Of a stretch of DNA of 64,000 nucleotides, positions 1 through 44,148 are shown piece after piece. The stretch lies in the NCBI GenBank assembly GCA_000182565.2, contig KQ257459.1; one strand, written 5' to 3'. Position 1 is the first letter of the stretch. Every line of letters begins with the position of its first letter. Origin of the DNA: Spizellomyces punctatus DAOM BR117. Lineage: Eukaryota. Position numbers and translations under genes: made by a program. A model generated the notes under the pieces. It was not told the DNA's origin and did not search any database. It saw nothing but the letters and a program-made list of their open reading frames with translations.

Positions 1-210
1 CACCTAACCCTAACCCTAACCCTAACCCTAACCCTAACCCTAACCCTAACCCTAACCCTAACCTAACCCTAACCCTAACCCTAACCCTAACCCTAACCCT
101 AACCCTAACCCTAACCCTAACCCTAACCCTAACCCTAACCCTAACCCTAACCCTAACCCTAACCCTAACCCTAACCCTAACCCTAACCCTAACCCTAACC
201 CTAACCCTAA
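1..210. repeat. Telomeric repeat (CCCTAA)n / (TTAGGG)n, chromosome end
   Basis: About 33 perfect CCCTAA units from the first bases of the window, with one CCTAA variant at 62-66. The tract ends abruptly at 210. Confidence 0.98.
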
Positions 211-2279
211 CCTCCCGTGTGATGAATCCCTTTAGCAGCGTTCGAATAGGGGACTTCACCCACACTTTATACAGTTCTTCTCGCATGTTTGCACTAGGCG
301 TCGTCCGATCTCTCTCCAGCTCACACTGCCCATCATGAACAGCATACCAGTCCGTGTAGACTTCCTCCTCCAACAAATCCCTGATGCCTGTTCGGTGCTC
401 AATGGGAGAACTAGCATTCGGTGAAAGAATGTGATGTAGCATGATGCTATAGACAAGTTCGATGCGACGGGCCGTCGAGAAAAAGTTCCACAGGACGCCA
501 TGGACGCCCAGACCCTCCTCTTCTGGATCACCGCCGATAAAGTCAACCAGATGGTTGCGGCGAAAGGTCGCGGTTCGCCTGTTGGCCGGGCAACGTTCAA
601 TGGTGAACATATACCCAGCGATGCGAGAAAGGCGTTCGGACATTGACCAGGATGTGGAAGCTGCCATGGATATTGTACTGCTCTTGGGACTGTAGGCTCC
701 TGGCGGTGTGTGGTTGTTGGTGGGCTTATTGTGCTTGCCCTTTTTCTTGTGATTATGTTGCTGGCGATGACGGGGAGACGAATTGTTGGACATTGGAGAA
801 AATAATAAAGGTGTTTGGAGGGGGTGCTGTTTGGTAGGGCTACTCTTTGTACGTGCCTGCAAAGGACGCAAATTGGCAATGTCAGAGCAGCGGCAAAGCA
901 GAGAAACCTAACTACACACCTTTACTTCCATCTTTAACCTCACTTTTTCCGCTTCTCGACATAAAGCATCGAATGGCGCCATGATTTTAACAAAGCGCTC
1001 CTCCTCCTGAAAACTCTCCCAATCCACTTCCAACTCGACAAACAAGTTGGCGCGTAGCATCTGCCGGGTATATAAGCCACGAAGTTCGGATGACGACAAG
1101 GCATGGCGGTGTCGGTGTTCGTAATGATAACGATGCCTTTGGCTGTGATGCGAGGAAACTGTAGATGAATGAGAGTGGAGATGATGAGCCCGATATTTCA
1201 GAATGCGTCCCAGTGCGTCGAGGAATTGGCAAATACGATGCGGGTGAGAGCGTCGGCATGCGGACGTTGTGCTGAGGTTCAACAGAACAGAATAAATGTT
1301 GTGGTATTGACCGGCATCCTAACTTTGCATGATCTTACCAAAATGCCCAAGTGCGTCTTCAAGGCCAACCCTATCCCCTCTCTCCTCCTTCCACGCTACA
1401 ATGTCATCAAAAAGCTCGACATCATCCACATACATTAACAATATGACCCGTGCTCCAATGGTCCGGGTCACAATGTCCTCATACCCAGGCCCCGATAGTT
1501 CAAGCATGATAGGAAGCCTCGCACGTTCCAACGTGGGAACGCTCACTTCAGAATCTGAATCACTCCCAGATGATGGTGGCCGCGTTGGGGGACGAGGAGT
1601 GTGATGGCGAGGGTAGACACGAGAGGAAAATGTTTCGGATTTCGGGAGAGAGTCGGCGCTGCTGGAGGCATAGGAAAAGCGCAGAGTCGTCGGGTCCGGT
1701 GCCTCGGCCTGCAGTTGGGATAAATTATCTTGCCTGAGCTGGTGCGGGGACGCTGCTAGATGTCGGCGTTGATGGGGGGGCGTTTGTGTATGTCCTCTGT
1801 TCGACTTGCAGCATGGGCCAAAGATATATTTGAACGGGTGAGCGGGCACACGAAGGCTCCTGCTGCCGAGGGTATACTGGAGATGTGCCACCCGCTGGTT
1901 GGAATACGGTAGCGGCATGACTACTTCCCTTGCTCAACCCTCTTTGATCGATGCTTTCGCGTTCAATGGGCGTGCTATGTCCACCCTTTTGTCGATGATG
2001 CTTGCTTTCTCGAACTGCTAATTCGTCATCTCCCGATCCTCCTACATATCTACCCTCCCTGAATAGATCGCGATTCGCTGATTTTTTTCTTCGACTCTTT
2101 TCTACCTCTCCCGTCTCAGCAAATCGGGTTGCAGCAAGGACAAAATTGGAATCCAGAGCATGAGCAGTTCCCGATCGGCCAGTGTGTCTGTGACGTTGTC
2201 GATGGGGATGATGAGCTCGTGCTGGAGTCTGAAGGATGGGATCAGAAAACAAGAACATAATGTGATGATTCTTATTCAT
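211..2279 (-). pseudogene. Anoctamin/TMEM16-family gene, N-terminal cytoplasmic part only, truncated by the telomere (5' end uncertain)
   Basis: The exon ending at 920 encodes FVKIMAPFDALCREAEKVRLKMEVK. A GT..AG intron (919-857) joins it in frame to an exon (856-211) encoding NFFSTARRIELVYSIM..GIRDLLEEEVYTDWYAVHDG..NMREELYKVWVK, which matches the anoctamin dimerisation-domain pattern. There is no stop before the telomere. ORFs 1319-1918 and 1725-2279 are probable upstream exons. Confidence 0.75.
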
Positions 2280-2726
2280 GGGTCCATATATTCGTTATTA
2301 GCTTTACCTCTGTCGTCGTGGATGGGAGCGAATCAGTTTCGTGCTGCCTGACTGGCGACTCGTTCTGATGGCCTGCTGCAGACATGCTCTACCGTGCACA
2401 CTGGCGCATGATGGATAAAGAGCTTTAGAAAACGAGACCAAGTGGAAGACTTGCTGAGGACCCCAAGCCGTTTGCAAGTTGCTGCGCAATGGGAGTTTCC
2501 GTATGGAATGGTTCCAAAATAACGAAACACTTGGAAGGAAAAGTGGGAAATTTTGCGAAAAAAGTTGTACCCGCTCTCTGAACAGCAATTGCATTGCAAC
2601 TCTTTTTTTGTTTACACTTGGGGATGATCATCACATCTGCAAATGCTTGGGAATGTTGAAAGCTTGCAATAATAATAATAATCACTCTTTTGAAATGTCA
2701 TTCCCTACGATTCTTGTCAGCACATA

Positions 2727-2756: not shown

Positions 2757-2972
2757 ACGGAGCATCGCAGCCAGTTGAATTAACCACATTTATTGTGAAC
2801 CTCACGAAGATAAACAAAAAAACGGGTCCAATACGTGCGGCAACGAACTGAATATTCTGCAGTTGCTCCACCATTGAAAAACGGGTCCAATGCGCAGTTG
2901 TCATATTTCTATATAAACCTGCCTTCCCTGCCCATTTCCCAGGTTTTCATCCATTTTTCTATTCCAATCATC

Positions 2973-4853
2973 ATGCTGCCAAAGAAAAAGCAAAAGCTTG
3001 AAAAACTTGACAAACCCACCTTACATACCTGCAACAAAACTTCCTTTGCAAAAGCTTTCCTGCCAAATGAGATCTACCACCAATGGCTTCTAGATTACAT
3101 CACCATCATCCATCAACTCGCTGACCACACTTCCCACGTGCTGAAATTCTACATCCTATCTGCACCATCCTTTCCCATGGTAGATCAAGATACAATCGAA
3201 GTGATTCTCTATCTTCTCAACAAAGGTGAATCATGGCAACCAAAAACCGGTGCAAAAAAGGCATTATGCAAATCCTTGTTGCCATACATCCAACAGTACT
3301 GCCACATTGTTGGCTATGTTCATCCAAATCTACAAAAAGAGCAGCAGTCAATCAATTACCTGACAGCAAGTATGATGACAAACCTGAAGGTCAACATTCA
3401 AGAACATTTCATGATGATGCTGCTCCAATATATCAATCTGTGGCTTGACGTGAAGGGACGGAAAGGGCAGCTGCCACTGAAAAGTGATGCGCAGAAAGCT
3501 TTCTTTACTCGGCTATGCTATTTAAAGTCAGTTTTCCTTTTCGAAACCATGCCAGAATTGCTGGATGACTTGACTGCTGAAGAGAGTGAACTTCTAGAAG
3601 AGATTTGGTCCCTTAACATTCCCCTTTCTGATGACCAGCCACTCGCATATTCCATTGCTGTAGACCCTCTCGCGTTCTTTCCTGCATACTGTCAGGTGTC
3701 AAGCCTATATGAAAAGCATGGATTTCGATGGTTCAGCGCCATCCCACTTTGCTGCTCCCTCATCCAAAGCCATGTGTGGATTGACACTGTCATCCTCTAC
3801 TCTCATGTTCTTTGCATCACATGACAAGAAGCAGAAGCTGTAGAGAAGGTCGATTTATGGTTGTGCATCTGCAATCTACGTACCAAAGCTTTTCAGTCTC
3901 ACCATGGTATGCAGTTTGAAGGCTCGATCACGACAGATGGAACCTTGGTATCTGTATACCTAAAGCACCCAGAAGGAGACAAGTATGGAAAGCATGGAGC
4001 GAGAAAGTCAGCAAACATGGTGGTGGCAGAGGTCAAAGTGCTTTATGTGGAGAACAACTTACCTGCTTGTTGAGCAGCAGAGAATGTCATCATTATTGAC
4101 CCAAACAAGTGTGACATTCTGTACTGCCAAGACAGCAATGGTACGACATTTTGCTACACCACCAACCAGCGAGCCGTGGAGACTGGAAGCCATCGATTTG
4201 CAAAAGAACTGCAGCAGATGAAGAAAGCGGGAATTGACCTCATAGAATCATGTATCCCTAGCCACAAAACAATGAACCTCATGGATTTTACTCACTATCT
4301 CCTCATTCGGCGCACTGATTCAGATCATCGAAAGGACTTCTATTCGCATCCTGCCCACACGCGGTGGAAGTGGCATGCATTTATAAACCATCAGAAGAGT
4401 GAATCGAACCTCATATCTGACTTGCGCAACAAGTATGGTGAAAACTTTACCATTGTGATGGGAGATTGGAGCGATGCCGGTCAAACTGCAAGATTTCAGA
4501 CCTCATCAAAGACGAAAGGTTGGCATGCCCTCTTTACGTGCAACAGGATCAACTGCTTCCTTCTCGACAAGTATAAAACCTCATCTGTCTGCCCTCACTG
4601 TTCCTCTGGCGTTGAAAAAGGCTTCAAAACACGACCTCATTCAAGACCTTGGCAGCGAGGCAAGATTGAAAAAGTCCACGGATTGCTGGGTTGTACCAAC
4701 CCTAACTGTTTGCAGCAAGCCTGGACAATGCGCTACTGGAATCGAGATACGCTGAGCACCTGCAATATGGTAACGATCGTGCAATCAATGTTGGCTGGAC
4801 ATGGTAGACCAGACGTGTTCAGCAGGCAGTGTTCCAGCCGTAGCGTAGCATAG
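2973..4853 (+). pseudogene. Fz1: Fanzor1 RNA-guided endonuclease (TnpB/Cas12-related RuvC), inactivated, about 626 codons
   Basis: ORFs 2835-3824, 3861-4073 and 4176-4853 share one frame and are separated only by TGA at 3822-3824 and 4071-4073. The protein has an N-terminal NLS-like PKKKQK, then ITTDG, RuvC-I IIIDPNK, MGDWS, LLD(K)YKTS, zinc finger CPHC..CTNPNC and RuvC-III WNRD. It closely resembles SpuFz1 as I recall that sequence. Confidence 0.93.
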
Positions 4854-4867
4854 ATTGGTTAGATTAG

Positions 4868-4955
4868 CTTTTCCGAACCGGTTGTCGCCGGTTTATTCCC
4901 TGGTGTGGAGGCACTGACATTTGTTTTTGCTAATACACTAAGTGTCTGTCCCTGA
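4868..4955 (+). ncRNA. Putative Fanzor omegaRNA: scaffold 4868-4940 plus flank-derived guide from 4941
   Basis: Lies directly downstream of the ORF. Contains hairpin AACCGG-TTGTCG-CCGGTT (4876-4893) and a long stem of 4901-4913 with 4928-4940. The CTTTTCCGA..CCCTGGTG..CACTA layout resembles the SpuFz1 omegaRNA as recalled. The ~15-nt guide length is assumed from SpuFz1. Confidence 0.8.
4910..4939 (-). repeat. Right terminal inverted repeat of the Fanzor element (overlaps the omegaRNA 3' stem)
   Basis: Reverse-complement match to 2727-2756 (24/30). Confidence 0.85.
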
Positions 4956-5832
4956 TACGCTTTCTTGCGATTTCCCACAAGTAGTCCGTTGAAAGAGATT
5001 TCTTCCTCTTTGTAATCTCTCTCTCTCTCTCTCTCTTCCCTCTCTTTTCCCAAACCTCCTCCCACTCTCCTCCAGTCTCATCTTCCAGTGCAACTTAGCT
5101 AAATTCCCATTCAAAAAAAACACCCATATCAAAAACTAAAGCCCCAGTAGGAAATCGCGCAATCTTCTCTTTTGGCCATAAATGGAAATTTCCGGTTGGA
5201 TTTTTGGATGGGGTTCTCACATAATGTGACGTTTTTCCCTCTCTTGGTTGCTGCCACCGCTGCCTTTTATTACTTGTCAGTTTGCTCTGTCTTTTGCTCT
5301 GGTTATTTCCCACACACACACGCACTTGTCGTTATCTTTTGTCAAGGACCTCATTGCAAACGCGCTTGCCCTTCATTTGAGAATTGGTTCTGGTCTCATC
5401 TACTGATCGCTCTCAGGCAAATCCCCTGCATATTGAAGTTTGGCTACTAGAGGAGGGGTTTACCCAGTGACGACACATAAAGCAAAAAGGGGAGAACAAG
5501 GAACAAGCTCTCGAAACTTGGGTATGCGTGAGAAAAAGACTGTCAAAACGAATTCGACAGCTTTCCCAGGATACTGATAAAATGCCGCTTACAGGAAGAA
5601 ACAGCCACCCACAGTTACTCCACCCATCGGTGTCGCTCGATCCGGTCCCCCTTTTATCCCGCACCATTGTTCCTTCACCGGTACGAGTCCAAGACGCCGC
5701 GTACGATACTCGAACTGTCCTATTCCTTTGAGTCGGGTATGTGCAATTGGAGTGCAGTCAACCTTAATAGGTTCACTTTCTCACCTTCATTTTTGCAAAC
5801 GTGAAACAGGGCCATCGCACCTGCGCTCCCAA

Positions 5833-8800
5833 ATGCCCCGCCCACAAACTATCCACGAAGCATCGCTTGGAAGAAGCTCGAGACCGTCTACGCCGTCCGG
5901 GCCTCCAAGCCGCCACTCAACTTACGCGTCGGCCCTACGATCTCGCACGCACAGCTACCGCAATACTCCTGGAGGGAATACACCGGAAATTGGGGAGCAA
6001 GGGGAAGCATGGGACGGAGATCCTGATCGGACCCAGTTCAGACACACTGGGGACTTTTCTGCCATTCCTCCAAGTAGTCACGATGATGTTCATGAAGACT
6101 GGGAGGAAGGGCACGAATCACCAGAGGGACATGACTCTGGGAATGGATCGGGAGGCGAGGGCCAAGAGTCGGATGGAGAAGCGCGGCGGTTGAGAGACGT
6201 TCAAGAGGTCAGTTTTCTTTTTGCTCGAGATGCTGAAATTGCTAACGTTGGTATGAACTGACAATGGTACCTTCAGGCTATCAATGTAAGTCATCCGTTC
6301 GGTCTCAGAATATGGAAGCCGGCCTTGTATCGGAAATTCCGTAGTATCGATACCAAAACGTACAATGCACTGCATGCTACACCTGGCGAAAGACCGACGC
6401 GTACACTTTACCTCAATCCGGGAAATATACTGTGGTTGATCCTTTTTGGCTGGTGGCTCGCTCTCGTGTACTTCCTGGTGGCGACAGTTGTGCTGGGTCC
6501 CCTGGCTTTTCTTGGAAAGGTCGGAGCCACGATATACTTTTGTGGGAACGAGCGTGAGGAAATAGAATGTGGCCTTACGAGCTGTGTTGGATGGTTCTTC
6601 ATTGAGCTGGAAAATATCTGGCAGTACTCAAAAGTACGTCCTCTGCACAGTGTTTCAGTAGCCTTTCTGCCCCTCTAACATCTGATGCACATGGTAGGTC
6701 TTAATGAATCTTTCCGGATATATCCTGTGGCCTTTTGGCAAGTTCATTGCGAAGCGCCGAGTCTATCACATGGTCTTCCAGGAGGATCATGATGGGACGG
6801 CAAATGGCGTATCAAATGAGCGGACGGCACTGTTGTCTGATCACGATGGACAGCGATATTCGGAAGATACCTATGTTGTTGGCATACCCGATGATAGCGT
6901 TCCCGCAACGCCAGTGCCAGAACCTGCGTCATCAGCGGATAGACAAGACTTAAAGGTTGCGGCTTGCTGTGACAATGAGGCCAACGCAGAAAATATGAGC
7001 GAAGTTTCCGAAGAATCTTGGCATGAATTTATGTCGTCGAGTCGCAGGTACAGCTACGCGAACGGACATCATCATCGTTGGCCAAAATGGGTTCCGCGAT
7101 GGATTAGAAGAGCGTACAATGCTGGACTGGCAGGAAACTTATTCCGGCTGCTGCTCCTTATAACCATCGCACCTTTGCAGTTCGTCGTGGCTTGCATGTG
7201 CTCCTTTCTCGTCTTTCCACTGCCAATGGCCAAGCTGAATTACGTCCTCTTGAAGCATCTTTTCCGACACCCACTGCAGATCTCTGCCCACACTCCTGTG
7301 TACTCCAAGAGACCCAGCACTCGTCCCTCCAGAAGCGCTAGCCTGGCATCTCGCGCATCGGATATTTGGCGAAGGTCGAGTCGCATGTTTGGGCGGCCCA
7401 CAAGCATATTTTCCGAGTCGGCCGAGCCCATTGCTATTCCTACCACGTTAGGAACCCCGACGCAGATGCCAAGTGGTGCTGTGGCTCAAGGTCCCCAGCT
7501 GGCTCCCGAATTCCAAGTGATTCTGTGCACTTATAATGCTCTTGGATGGGATTACTACAAGTACACGTATGACGGGATCAACATCATTGTTATCAATTTG
7601 ATAGCAGTCGTCATTTTCGCGCTGGTAGATTTTTACGTGATCGGTCCACGCTTTGGTTACACCGGAATTGCAAGTAACACTGTTATTTTCGTGGCGTCGC
7701 TCATCAGTTCGATTCCTTTGGCGTACTTTATCGGAATGGCCGTTGCGTCGATTACGTCTGAAACAGGGTCTTTGGCTGTGGGAGCGGTGATCAATGCCAC
7801 TTTTGGATCCATCATCGAAATCATTCTGTACTCGCTCGCACTGGTGGAGGGCAAACAGCGCATGGTCGAAGGTGCCATAGTGGGATCTTTACTGGCTGGC
7901 TTGTTGGCCTTACCTGGTGTGTCAATGTTCTTTGGTGGATTGAAGAAGAAGGAGCAACGGTTCAACGCAAAAGCTGCTGGTGTGACAGCCACCATGTTGA
8001 TCGTAGCAGTTGTTGGGATGTTTACGCCTACCTTATTCCAAGAAGTGTATGGAACGCAGAAGCTAAAGTGCCTAGAGTGTCCGACAACTGTGGATCAGCA
8101 TTCAATGACTCCCCTCGGACTCGCGCTATCTTGTAAACATTGTCGTCTGATTAGCCCGCGCCCTTCGGAGGACCCGATTTACTTGACCAGTACGAGGCCG
8201 CTGGCATGGCTGTGTGCTGCTGCATTACTTTTGATGTATGCAGTCGGACTGCTATTCACATTGAGGACCCACTCACGTGTGATTTATGACAAACCCGACA
8301 AAAAGGTGAAGAGAAGGCGGAGGGCGGCTGCTGTATCCAGGGCATTGGACTTGGCAAAGAGCGACCATCATCATGGAATTCGTGCTATTGGAGGATTAGG
8401 AATAACAAATGATTATGGAGCAGAGGCTGCAGATCGAGAATTGCGTGAATCAAGAAACCCGAGAACCTCGGCAGCTGGTAATATTGGACAAGGACACGGG
8501 AAACGGGTATCACGAGTTAGCAACGCGGCCTCTATTCCCCCGAATGAATATCCCTTTCCTAACGTTCCACTAACGATCGAAACTTCCACCGGTTCCCGAC
8601 CAGTGAGTCTTACAACCCCCACAACACCCATCTCGCCGTCCCTCCCGCCCTGCCGCGGAATTCAAACGACATCTGGTGTCGTTCAGGTCGTTCACCCCGA
8701 TCCTGTTGTTTCAGTGATCGGTGGGGATGATTGGGATACGGCCTCAACAGGGTCATCCGAGTCTGATGAATCGGAAGCCCACGGACATGACCATCCAAAC

Positions 8801-40913: not shown

Positions 40914-43900
40914 ATGACAGACTGCGCACAACCATGGCTATCGTATTGGATATCACATTCACTTGCATTCATTCTCGGGTCTCTTGTCTCTCTCCTCTTG
41001 ATTCTCTCGGGTTTCCTCGTCTTTATTCACTGGCTTCCTTACTATGTTCTTCCCGTCAAGGCAAAGCGCTCATTCCTTCCCCCCAACCACACTACTACTA
41101 CTACTACTACTAAATTACCATCACTACTACGGAAACGGCCTAGGAGGCACAAGCGACTGTCGGGTTTTGATCCTCACTTGTTTAGAAAGGGCTGGGTCCG
41201 CATTTCATCCGTTGCTCTCACTCCAGTGGAACTGCACGAGGATGGGACAGAGGTGGTTGTGCAAGAGGGTGGAACGCGACGAGTAAAGAAAAAGAGATCT
41301 TTTACACAGTCGACATTTCAAGTCTCAAAGGAAATGGTTGCTTCTGCTCAGAAATCGGCCATATCCGTCTATTCCTTGACGCGCTCAGTCTCCTCCTATC
41401 TGGTCTCGAGGTTCATGGGCCAGCCTTCTGCTGTGGCTTTACAGGGAGCAGATTCTTTCAAGACGACCACCGATACAACTACTACTACTACCACCACCAC
41501 CACTACCACCACCACTCCTGTCCTACAGGAACCCCCACCGCCGCCATGGCGGAACGCTTATGGCGTCCTCAAATACAAGACATTATACCTTTATTCGAGT
41601 GAAACTCAGGAAGAATGTACAGACGTTTTGGCCCTCTCGGATTATACCGTAGAATTATACCCTCCAACCACCACAGATCTTGACATTTACCTCCGCACCC
41701 ATCCCATCCGCTTGGTCTCAAAACAACACCCCGACCGCATCTTGTACATGTATTACCCCACAGGCTCGGACAAGGAAGACTGGTACATTATGCTCCGCCG
41801 CGCAACTCTGCTCCCCACTTTTGCCGACGCCGGAGCAATGTCTGCTTATCATCAAGACAGCGAACCCGTCCGCGCCTATGTTGATGCCATGAAAAAGCTC
41901 GTCAATACCCTCAGACCGGCCCTGGACCATCATCCGGGATGAACAACAACAATCAAACAATACGCTCGCAACCGCCGGGTTGAACGCCCTTGGGTCGGGG
42001 GGCCTTTGTGGAATCACGCTAACCCCCACGTCAAGAAATTGGGTCATGGGAAAAGCTGTCGGCNNNNNNNNNNNNNNNNNNNNNNNNNNNNNNNNNNNNN
42101 NNNNNNNNNNNNNNNNNNNNNNNNNNNNNNNNNNNNNNNNNNNNNNNNNNNNNNNNNNNNNNNGATGCACTAGCACCGGCGACAATAATGTTCCTTCTTT
42201 TTTGGGCGACATTGTTATCCAAGACGTTGACGTGGGAGACTCGATCCCCGTGTTGAGCAATCCCAAGCTCTGTGACATGTCGGTCGACGGCGACATGAAC
42301 ATTCAACTCGACATTGAGTATACCGGCGGCGTCCGTCTTGAAGCAGCAACGGTCGCTACCATTTCCGTCGAGGCGTGGAACGACATTGTCAAACCCATCC
42401 AAGTCCCCCTGGTCGTGGCGGTCCGCATCAAGCGCTTTAGTGCCCGCCTCCTCCTCAAAGTCAAACCCTACTGGGAAACCAACCGCATCTGGATGGGCGT
42501 ATTAAGGGATCCCGACCTTGTCCTCGAACTCGAAGTCGAGCCCATCATTTCCAACAAACTCGTCAAACTCCATCTCGTCAACCAAGTCATTGAGCGCCGC
42601 ATCAAGGAAGCCCTCGAAGAGTTTGTCATGCTGCCCAATATGGAAGATGTCTCGTTTTGGCCTTCAGGTGGAATGGGCGGCATGTTTTGGGGGGGCGCAG
42701 AAGAGGGGGATGACTGTGCACAGGAATCGGAAGCCTCGGATTCCGATGCACACGACTCTGGGGATGAAGGCGTTGATGCCGACATTGACGATTTAGACCT
42801 GGATGACGCTCGTCTGGTCCCCCCAAGGTCCTCTACGAGTATACAACCGGTGCCTGCGGCTTTATTTGCGGGTGAAGCCGTTGAGAGCACTCTTCGGATT
42901 CGAAAACCGGATGTCAACCGGAACCGTAGAGTGTACGAGTCCCTATTGAAATCTCAGCAACAACAGCAACAACAACAACAGCAACAGCAACAGCAACAGC
43001 AACAAGTCTTTTCGGAAGGTGAAGTCTCTGATGCGTCTACCACAAGTAGTAGTGGCATGGCCGATCCTGTCGTTATCGCAAATGGACGATCGCAGGTATC
43101 GGCCGTCCCAACCGCTCCGTCGTCGCAGCCGCCACCGCCGTCCGACGCCATCAATACTACCACGACCGTCCCCTCACAACAACCACCGCCACCAGCAGAA
43201 CAAGAAGCAGAACCACCAGCACCAGCACCAGCACCACCACCACCACCAGCACCCACCACACCATGGTACTATGAAACCCTCGGGTCAGCAGCAGACTACC
43301 TCGGCCAAGTCGCCCGCCACTACGGACTAGACGACACGGCCCGCTCCCTTGCCCAATCCGCAACCGAATACGCTACACCCACCGTGAAAACCGCCACTGA
43401 AACGGCTGAATACTGCCGGATGACGCTGATGGATATGGCTAAATACTATGGAACATTGACTGCCGAATACTTTAATCTCAAGCCTGACGCTGTTGTAGAT
43501 GAAGCAGCGTCGCCATCATCCTCCACATCATCACCATCATCATCCGCATCAGCATCATCATCACCACCATCAGGAGGAGGAGGAGGGGCGGAAGCGACCA
43601 TGACGACACCGAGACCTCCATCAACGGTGTTTGAAATGATGGGTGTAAGCATCTCTACAAGTCCACCTACACCTGTTCCTGCCCCCCGTCGCAAACGGGC
43701 CATATCGCATGGTTCAAGCCTTTCCCAACAACCGACATCAAACACCCTCACCCCATCTCCCCCCGCTTGTCCTCCTCCTCCGCCTCCTCCTCCTCCTCGT
43801 CCACCCTCACCGAATAAAGAACCGACACCACTAGTACCAGGTGCCACATCCTATTGCGCAACATACCGCCGCGCCCATCACGCACGTCTCCCCCCTCCAG

Positions 43901-44148
43901 TTGCCGTCACCCGAGCCCGAAGCATGCCCATCCTCTCGCCGAATCGCGCTCACACATCTCCTACCATCCCATCGTTTGAATCGAGGATCAGTCATGGGAG
44001 AGTTCGAAGACATACCGTTCCGAAAGACTGGCCACCGCTTCCCAAGACGGTATTAGAGTATGATGATGAGGAGGATGGGTTAAAGGGGTTTGAAGAGGCT
44101 TTTGAGAGGGGGGTTTTGAAAGAGTTTTGGGAGTGGGGTTCGGGATGA
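40914..44148 (+). CDS. Nvj2/TEX2-like membrane-contact-site protein (TM + PH-like + SMP), interrupted by an assembly gap
   Basis: N-terminal TM helix, PH-like AYGVLKYKTLYLY..KEDWYIML, SMP-like PSFLGDIVIQDVDVGDSIP..YTGGVRL..NRIWMG..FVMLPNMED, and a low-complexity polyQ/Pro tail. The frame is broken just before the gap, probably from poor sequence quality. Confidence 0.75.
42064..42163. other. Assembly gap (100 N)
   Basis: Run of 100 N. Confidence 1.

Follow-up and report, generated by a model that had tools for sequence, protein, structure and literature searches.

At the start of a contig of Spizellomyces punctatus DAOM BR117, a transformable model chytrid whose assembly analysed here is the reference, telomere repeats run directly into the coding sequence of an anoctamin (TMEM16) gene. 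Is this the end of a chromosome arm that broke and was capped anew, or does the chromosome continue beyond it? We addressed this question using the 64,000-nucleotide stretch of contig KQ257459.1 (assembly GCA_000182565.2) that begins at this point, which we call the window. If the break is real, the reference is missing the membrane half of the anoctamin, together with a stretch of distal arm that the strain's transcripts seem to retain. Gene-content comparisons and knock-out designs drawn from the reference would then be misled, and the locus would document, in sequence, the healing of a chromosome by telomerase in Chytridiomycota, a group mentioned nowhere among the matches listed in our search of the chromosome-healing literature. 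The excerpts available of three papers on ploidy or telomeres in S. punctatus (PMC12695648, PMC5364385 and PMC10823177) contain nothing bearing on this end.

The terminal array and its junction

Tandem Repeats Finder (TRF) reported a single array at positions 3–212 (period 6, 35.2 copies, 99% matches, score 413, unit CCTAAC). The first three bases of the window (CAC) are off the telomere pattern and are followed by 35 units of CCCTAA. The sequence TTAGGGTTAGGG, with at most one mismatch allowed, has 33 matches in the 64 kb, all 33 of them on the minus strand within 2–210, against 0.25 expected from shuffled sequences. No telomere-like tract was found in the 64-kb window outside the terminal array with a 12-base pattern and at most one mismatch. 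The array lies at the physical end with its G-rich strand pointing outward, as in a healed end; an interstitial array would be flanked by non-telomeric DNA on both sides, and this one reaches bases 1–3. The start of the window is presumably the start of the record, the simplest reading of a start inside an array, since the window contains an N gap, so that windows are not cut at gaps. This scaffold gap of 100 Ns occupies 42064–42163; it interrupts a long open frame (41893–44148) with an MMM1/SMP-like Pfam match. The assembly itself is a 2009 Sanger draft of 329 contigs in 38 scaffolds, built with Arachne from 4-kb and 10-kb plasmids and 40-kb fosmids at 11.7x coverage and reviewed manually (PMC4991717).

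Unique coding sequence begins at 213, and the repeats are fused to it directly. Read on the minus strand, with a slash at the point of fusion, the junction is ...ATCACACGGGAGG/TTAGGGTTAGGG, or in short form ...CACGGGAGG/TTAGGG. The GG at 212–211 is common to the gene (last base of the codon GAG) and the repeat. In register, the seed is this GG; it becomes AGG if the A at 213 is counted, in which case the first unit is a TTAGG variant. The telomere-like junction with a G-rich seed described in the initial annotation is thus present. It is possible that the telomere began with such a TTAGG unit, or that the variant unit at 62–66 is a base-calling error. The 31-mer at 34–64, at the variant unit, is identical to the 31-mer at 183–213, at the gene–telomere junction. 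The absence of a subtelomeric buffer, also noted at the outset, was confirmed: the array meets unique coding sequence, and downstream of it lies ordinary gene-dense DNA, in which 14 of the 23 long ORFs match Pfam families, among them Na_Ca_ex, PLA2_B, PDR-type ABC, HSP70, Mito_carr and PP2C.

The minus-strand frame 2..871 has no stop codon up to the window edge. It reads ...ELYKVWVKSPIRTLLKGFITRE, then (VR)n and, past the short unit, (LG)n, which agrees with the stop-free frame first reported, including its switch after 62–66. Only one of the three frames is free of stops through the whole array. This single open frame of three makes the openness a one-in-three accident of the TTAGGG repeat and not a designed feature. 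A further proposal, that any transcript would be a non-stop mRNA encoding telomeric dipeptide repeats, found no evidence in its favour: none of the contigs of the four runs aligned to 189–2600 shows a transcript entering TTAGGG, and the sole spliced contig (X1, described below) continues past the junction rather than ending in the repeats. Messages that lack a stop codon are expected to be removed by non-stop decay.

The gene and its membrane domain

As listed in Table 1, the last retained exon starts at 856, in accordance with the initial annotation. Contig X1 joins 855 directly to 919, thereby skipping an intron with the expected ends, and covers the transcribed leader up to 2566.

Table 1. 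Features at the start of the window (X1, spliced contig from another sequencing run; see text).
Feature	Position	Strand	Remarks
Telomere array (TTAGGG)n	1..212	minus	G-rich strand 5' to 3' towards window start
5-base variant unit TTAGG (plus strand: CCTAA)	62..66	minus	(VR)n becomes (LG)n in the read-through frame
Junction and seed	211..213	minus	reads ...ATCACACGGGAGGTTAGGGTTAGGG; TRF array ends at 212
Exon 4, last retained	212..856	minus	end of cytosolic Anoct_dimer domain; ends ...KGFITRE
Intron 3, 63 nt, GTGTGT...TTGCAG	857..919	minus	skipped by X1 contig
Exon 3	920..1271	minus	window one base short at 1204/1205 relative to X1, frame broken
Intron 2, 67 nt, GTAAGA...CCTCAG	1272..1338	minus	skipped by X1
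Exon 2	1339..2228	minus	seven single-base homopolymer excesses relative to X1
Exon 2 excess positions	1746, 1774, 1836, 1853, 1893, 1897, 1914	minus	relative to X1
Intron 1, 79 nt, GTAAAG...CCTTCAG	2229..2307	minus	skipped by X1
Exon 1	2308..2566	minus	ATG of contig-based model at 2385, with upstream in-frame stop

The 194-residue peptide that starts at the first ATG of exon 4 (P0001) matched the Pfam family PF16178 (Anoct_dimer) with an E value of 1.7e-12 (48.2 bits; cut-off 22), and the annotated protein SPPG_05717 (P0003) matched the same family with an E value of 4.3e-22. In a word search, the only longer relative (one match among 266 candidates) was a 1195-residue anoctamin of Fimicolochytrium jonesii (P0002), to which the window peptide is 42% identical and at whose residue 583 the peptide ends. 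The profile match, a check suggested in the initial annotation, and the identity to this chytrid protein together bear out the anoctamin similarity. A PDB sequence search with P0001 gave no match at E values up to 10.

The membrane domain (PF04547) occupies residues 588–1135 of P0002 and 145–681 of P0004 from Thoreauomyces humboldtii, in which the window peptide ends at residue 139. The cut point thus lies five residues before PF04547 in P0002 and six in P0004, consistent with the earlier statement that the gene is severed just before its membrane domain. In a third orthologue (P0007; 1136 residues), KGFITGE at 523 runs on into VREYVGEQIAFYFDW at 528. Since all three chytrid orthologues pass from the ITR(D/E)/ITGE point directly into PF04547, the truncated state is the derived one. 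The S. punctatus remnant shares the Anoct_dimer domain with P0002, P0004 and P0007 at 40–45% identity; unlike members of the TMEM16/anoctamin family, it is missing the whole of PF04547, including the calcium site and the groove, and its frame enters telomere repeats where this domain is expected. Judged by its sequence, the anoctamin stretch is what remains of a gene, not a functional member of the family.

The membrane half was not found in the 64-kb window, where tblastn with P0002 matched residues 195–583 alone, at 1537..212. Nor did a search of annotated proteins of 336–1071 residues, a range outside which short or unannotated fragments fall, return a membrane-half protein of S. punctatus: the three matches among 8,000 scored candidates were all from other species. 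When P0004 was compared with representative proteins, 6,884 relatives were obtained at E values up to 0.001. Among the best 150 of these, only P0007 and P0002 are close (57%), the remainder being 27–39% identical, and no short S. punctatus fragment is present among these 150, with clustering at 50% that could hide one. Candidate metagenome relatives of P0001 (110 pattern matches, reduced to three loci) were discarded as spurious, being 16-residue matches with a best tblastn E value of 0.14 for P0002.

Two further features of the region were observed. A His/Ser/Arg-rich insert, HHLHSHSSTVSSHHSQRHRYHYEHRHRH, encoded on the minus strand at about 1090–1190 (exon 3), is absent from the F. jonesii orthologue. 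On the plus strand at 2814–6261, next to the anoctamin promoter, a region of lower GC content (0.44) contains three long open frames of 336, 259 and 226 amino acids. These ORFs matched no Pfam family (the best, DUF7863, had an E value of 0.013, below the cut-off), their best Atlas score of 0.79 was below the lead level, and no notable terminal inverted repeats were seen.

The truncation is already visible publicly as a partial gene. The NCBI entry 'uncharacterized protein SPPG_05717, partial' (P0003; 262 residues), the one protein obtained in a word search restricted to similar lengths, sits on a DAOM BR117 record of 1,011,657 bases, is 100% identical to the window peptide and ends at ...KGFITRE. 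Its model starts at an internal methionine (MLRANLF...) because indel errors in the assembly break the frame, at two places in all. The telomere thus cuts SPPG_05717 short at its 3' end, and an assembly indel does so at its 5' end. We found no literature naming this locus tag.

Contigs from other sequencing runs

We also turned to contigs of other sequencing runs. The run search gave 11 runs, none of them on record as RNA, and four of these were aligned to 189–2600. Positions 189–218 were masked as repeat in the contig alignment and three loose ends there were discarded, so that what the overhanging ends contain is deduced from their lengths only. Stretches left uncovered by X2, X3 and X6 were given no weight.

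The contig of run X1 (3105 letters; the run is on record as 'DNA?') fits 219–855, 919–1271, 1339–2228 and 2308–2566, and passes over three intervals that are bounded by GT..AG when read on the minus strand. These three skipped introns indicate that X1 derives from spliced RNA. It shows no substitutions over about 2,140 aligned bases and eight single-base gaps, and its letters 1–972 extend beyond position 219, past the junction. Contigs of run X6 are about 99% identical to the window, and one of them covers intron 3 unspliced. A 151-letter X6 contig fits the window with 33 letters (219–251) and continues for 118 letters beyond. An X6 contig also departs from the window after 617, with 15 unmatched letters; a sequence variant, a paralogue or a chimeric contig in the X6 organism could account for this departure at 617–618.

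Run X2 yielded a 622-letter contig, with a mean word depth of 2.87, that fits 219–804; its 36 further letters take it to position 183, a distance of 30 letters inside the repeat. Sample S2, from which X2 comes, behaves as DNA, since the sister run X3 covers intron 1 unspliced. By script, the leftmost 31-mer unique to the gene side begins at 184; the start moves to 183 if the reads lack the 5-base variant unit. The contigs are Logan contigs, which we take to have been built with k = 31. A 31-mer contig must stop where shared pure repeat follows, so that the X2 end at 183 fits a telomere beyond it. By the same reasoning, the overhangs of X1 and X6 do not fit a telomere, because a 31-mer contig cannot hold 118 or 972 letters of repeat. 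From these lengths, X2 would on our reading carry the telomere junction, whereas X1 and X6 would extend into other sequence, in the simplest case the remainder of the gene. There thus seems to be an intact copy in other material of the strain, with the same sequence as the remnant. X2 may be the assembly's own data and hence may not be independent; by its length it argues against an assembler misjoin, but it does not amount to an independent culture. The possibility that the gene simply continues, raised at the outset as a counter-argument to a healed end, is accordingly answered in two ways: 972 letters of X1 and 118 of X6 lie past the junction, but the DNA-like X2 stops in the repeat.

All eight differences between the window and X1 lie within 2.1 kb of the end and affect homopolymer runs, and none is a substitution. 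Followed back from the junction, the spliced frame remains free of stops over 654 residues in the X1 version (ATG at 2385) as against 339 in the window version. The extra base of X1 at 1204/1205 restores HWDAILKY, which matches EWDAILKY of P0002, and it is therefore the window that is wrong at this position. Pseudogene decay, considered as a cause of the frame breaks, was rejected in view of the eight homopolymer indels without any substitution, a pattern that resembles sequencing error. These differences reveal poor coverage and low quality in the final 2 kb of the scaffold.

A probable healed terminal break and its alternatives

The outward array, its direct fusion to the gene, the GG (or AGG) seed and the lack of a subtelomeric buffer make a healed terminal break, the reading first put forward in the initial annotation, the best account of this end. 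In full, we consider it probable that the sequenced DNA contained a very recent terminal break onto which telomerase had added repeats, and that other material of the strain contains an intact copy. A chromosome arm would have broken inside exon 4 of the TMEM16/anoctamin gene in the DNA used for the assembly, and telomerase would have extended the resected 3' end from the GG (or AGG) seed, giving the arm a new end of (TTAGGG)n repeats. The loss would include the complete membrane domain with its ten helices and all of the arm beyond it; the remnant would be unable to make a channel or scramblase, and degradation would be the expected fate of any read-through transcript, which would have no stop codon. 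We infer that telomerase was the agent, that raw reads contain the junction and that the overhangs of X1 and X6 represent the remainder of the gene.

Several observations support the healed break: the terminal array, with 99% matches and in chromosome-end orientation, is fused to unique coding sequence; the scaffold ends here despite 4-kb, 10-kb and 40-kb paired ends, which would presumably have linked it onward; the length of the X2 contig fits a telomere following; and no S. punctatus membrane-half protein was found among those of 336–1071 residues. Pure repeats at the break, with no foreign subtelomeric DNA, suggest telomerase rather than telomere capture, and the absence of substitutions between the remnant and X1 suggests that the event was very recent. 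On the other side, the support from X2 is a coincidence of lengths, since the letters past the junction were masked, and the eight homopolymer indels within 2.1 kb, as a sign of weak quality at this end, count against the reading. The overhangs of X1 (972 letters) and X6 (118) are unlike a contig entering a telomere and so argue against truncation as the sole state; if X1 comes from the same culture as the DNA, truncation is not the only state.

We regard the first alternative as a possible but clearly less likely account: healed and intact ends coexist in the strain, on two homologues, on an extra chromosome copy or in a mosaic of nuclei or cells, the assembler having taken the telomere-capped form while the RNA came from the intact one. 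The spliced X1, with no substitutions, runs 972 letters past the junction and X2 stops 30 letters into the repeat, so that one genotype could hold both; indeed, if the X1 RNA and the sequenced DNA come from one genotype, both forms must coexist. Chytrid sporangia are multinucleate, and multinucleated colonies are mentioned in the available excerpt of PMC12695648. At similar depth of the two forms, however, a 31-mer contig should fork at 213, and X2 (depth only 2.87) passes 30 letters into the repeat; moreover, the annotated proteome holds no membrane half within 336–1071 residues. Spizellomycetales are estimated to be haplontic in the part of PMC9457484 available, which favours differences between cultures or a mosaic over heterozygosity. 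That intact and healed versions coexist as an inherited condition within one strain, as a nuclear mosaic in thalli or a stable extra copy, strikes us as unlikely. Under inherited coexistence, the stump might be expressed as a protein of the cytosolic domain only, with a (VR)n/(LG)n tail, and a genetically tractable chytrid would become a natural system for the study of spontaneous chromosome healing.

We likewise hold little expectation that the junction is a cloning or assembly artefact, in which a chimeric clone or a false overlap joined telomeric reads to exon 4 while the chromosome continues and the rest of the gene went unassembled or unannotated. Such an error would account for the X1 and X6 contigs that run past the junction, would suit a 2009 Sanger draft, and could have arisen where eight indel errors within 2.1 kb betray thin or poor cover. 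A random chimera would, however, rarely be telomeric, and only half of those that were would be rightly oriented. The junction falls on a telomere seed. Judged by its length, the X2 contig (depth 2.87) crosses the junction; the paired ends and the manual review should have extended the scaffold, and no membrane-half protein of 336–1071 residues was found. An interstitial array inside an intron that begins GAG/GTTAGG, with the gene continuing to the left and the window starting within the array, is very improbable: a splice donor could be supplied by the GT at the junction and X1 would then splice across the array, but the three introns of this gene are 63–79 nt long, the array matches its unit to 99% over 210 bases and extends to the very start of a window that was not cut at a gap, and the annotation, which drew support from RNA-Seq, lists the gene as partial and places no exons downstream.

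Comparison with healed chromosome ends elsewhere

A break healed by telomerase, the reading we prefer, has counterparts in two other organisms. In Plasmodium falciparum 3D7, according to the available portion of PMC5550746, 5 of the 28 chromosome ends are healed, four of them inside var genes. As in those ends, subtelomeric elements are absent from the S. punctatus end and the lines are kept in the laboratory; an intact form, known for those ends from other material, seems to exist for the S. punctatus end as well. The chytrid case differs from the P. falciparum ends so described in its host, in the loss of a conserved anoctamin that looks single-copy rather than of a subtelomeric antigen gene, and in being known here from contigs. 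In Magnaporthe oryzae, the excerpt available of PMC7367193 reports that 19 of 24 de novo telomeres arose from seeds of 1–4 nt, in events tracked by cloning and MinION sequencing in single-spore lines and tied to telomeric retrotransposons; no such retrotransposon was seen in the S. punctatus window. With the terminal truncations of M. oryzae, as presented in that excerpt, the S. punctatus end shares the TTAGGG repeat and a seed of 1–4 nt, here GG or AGG.
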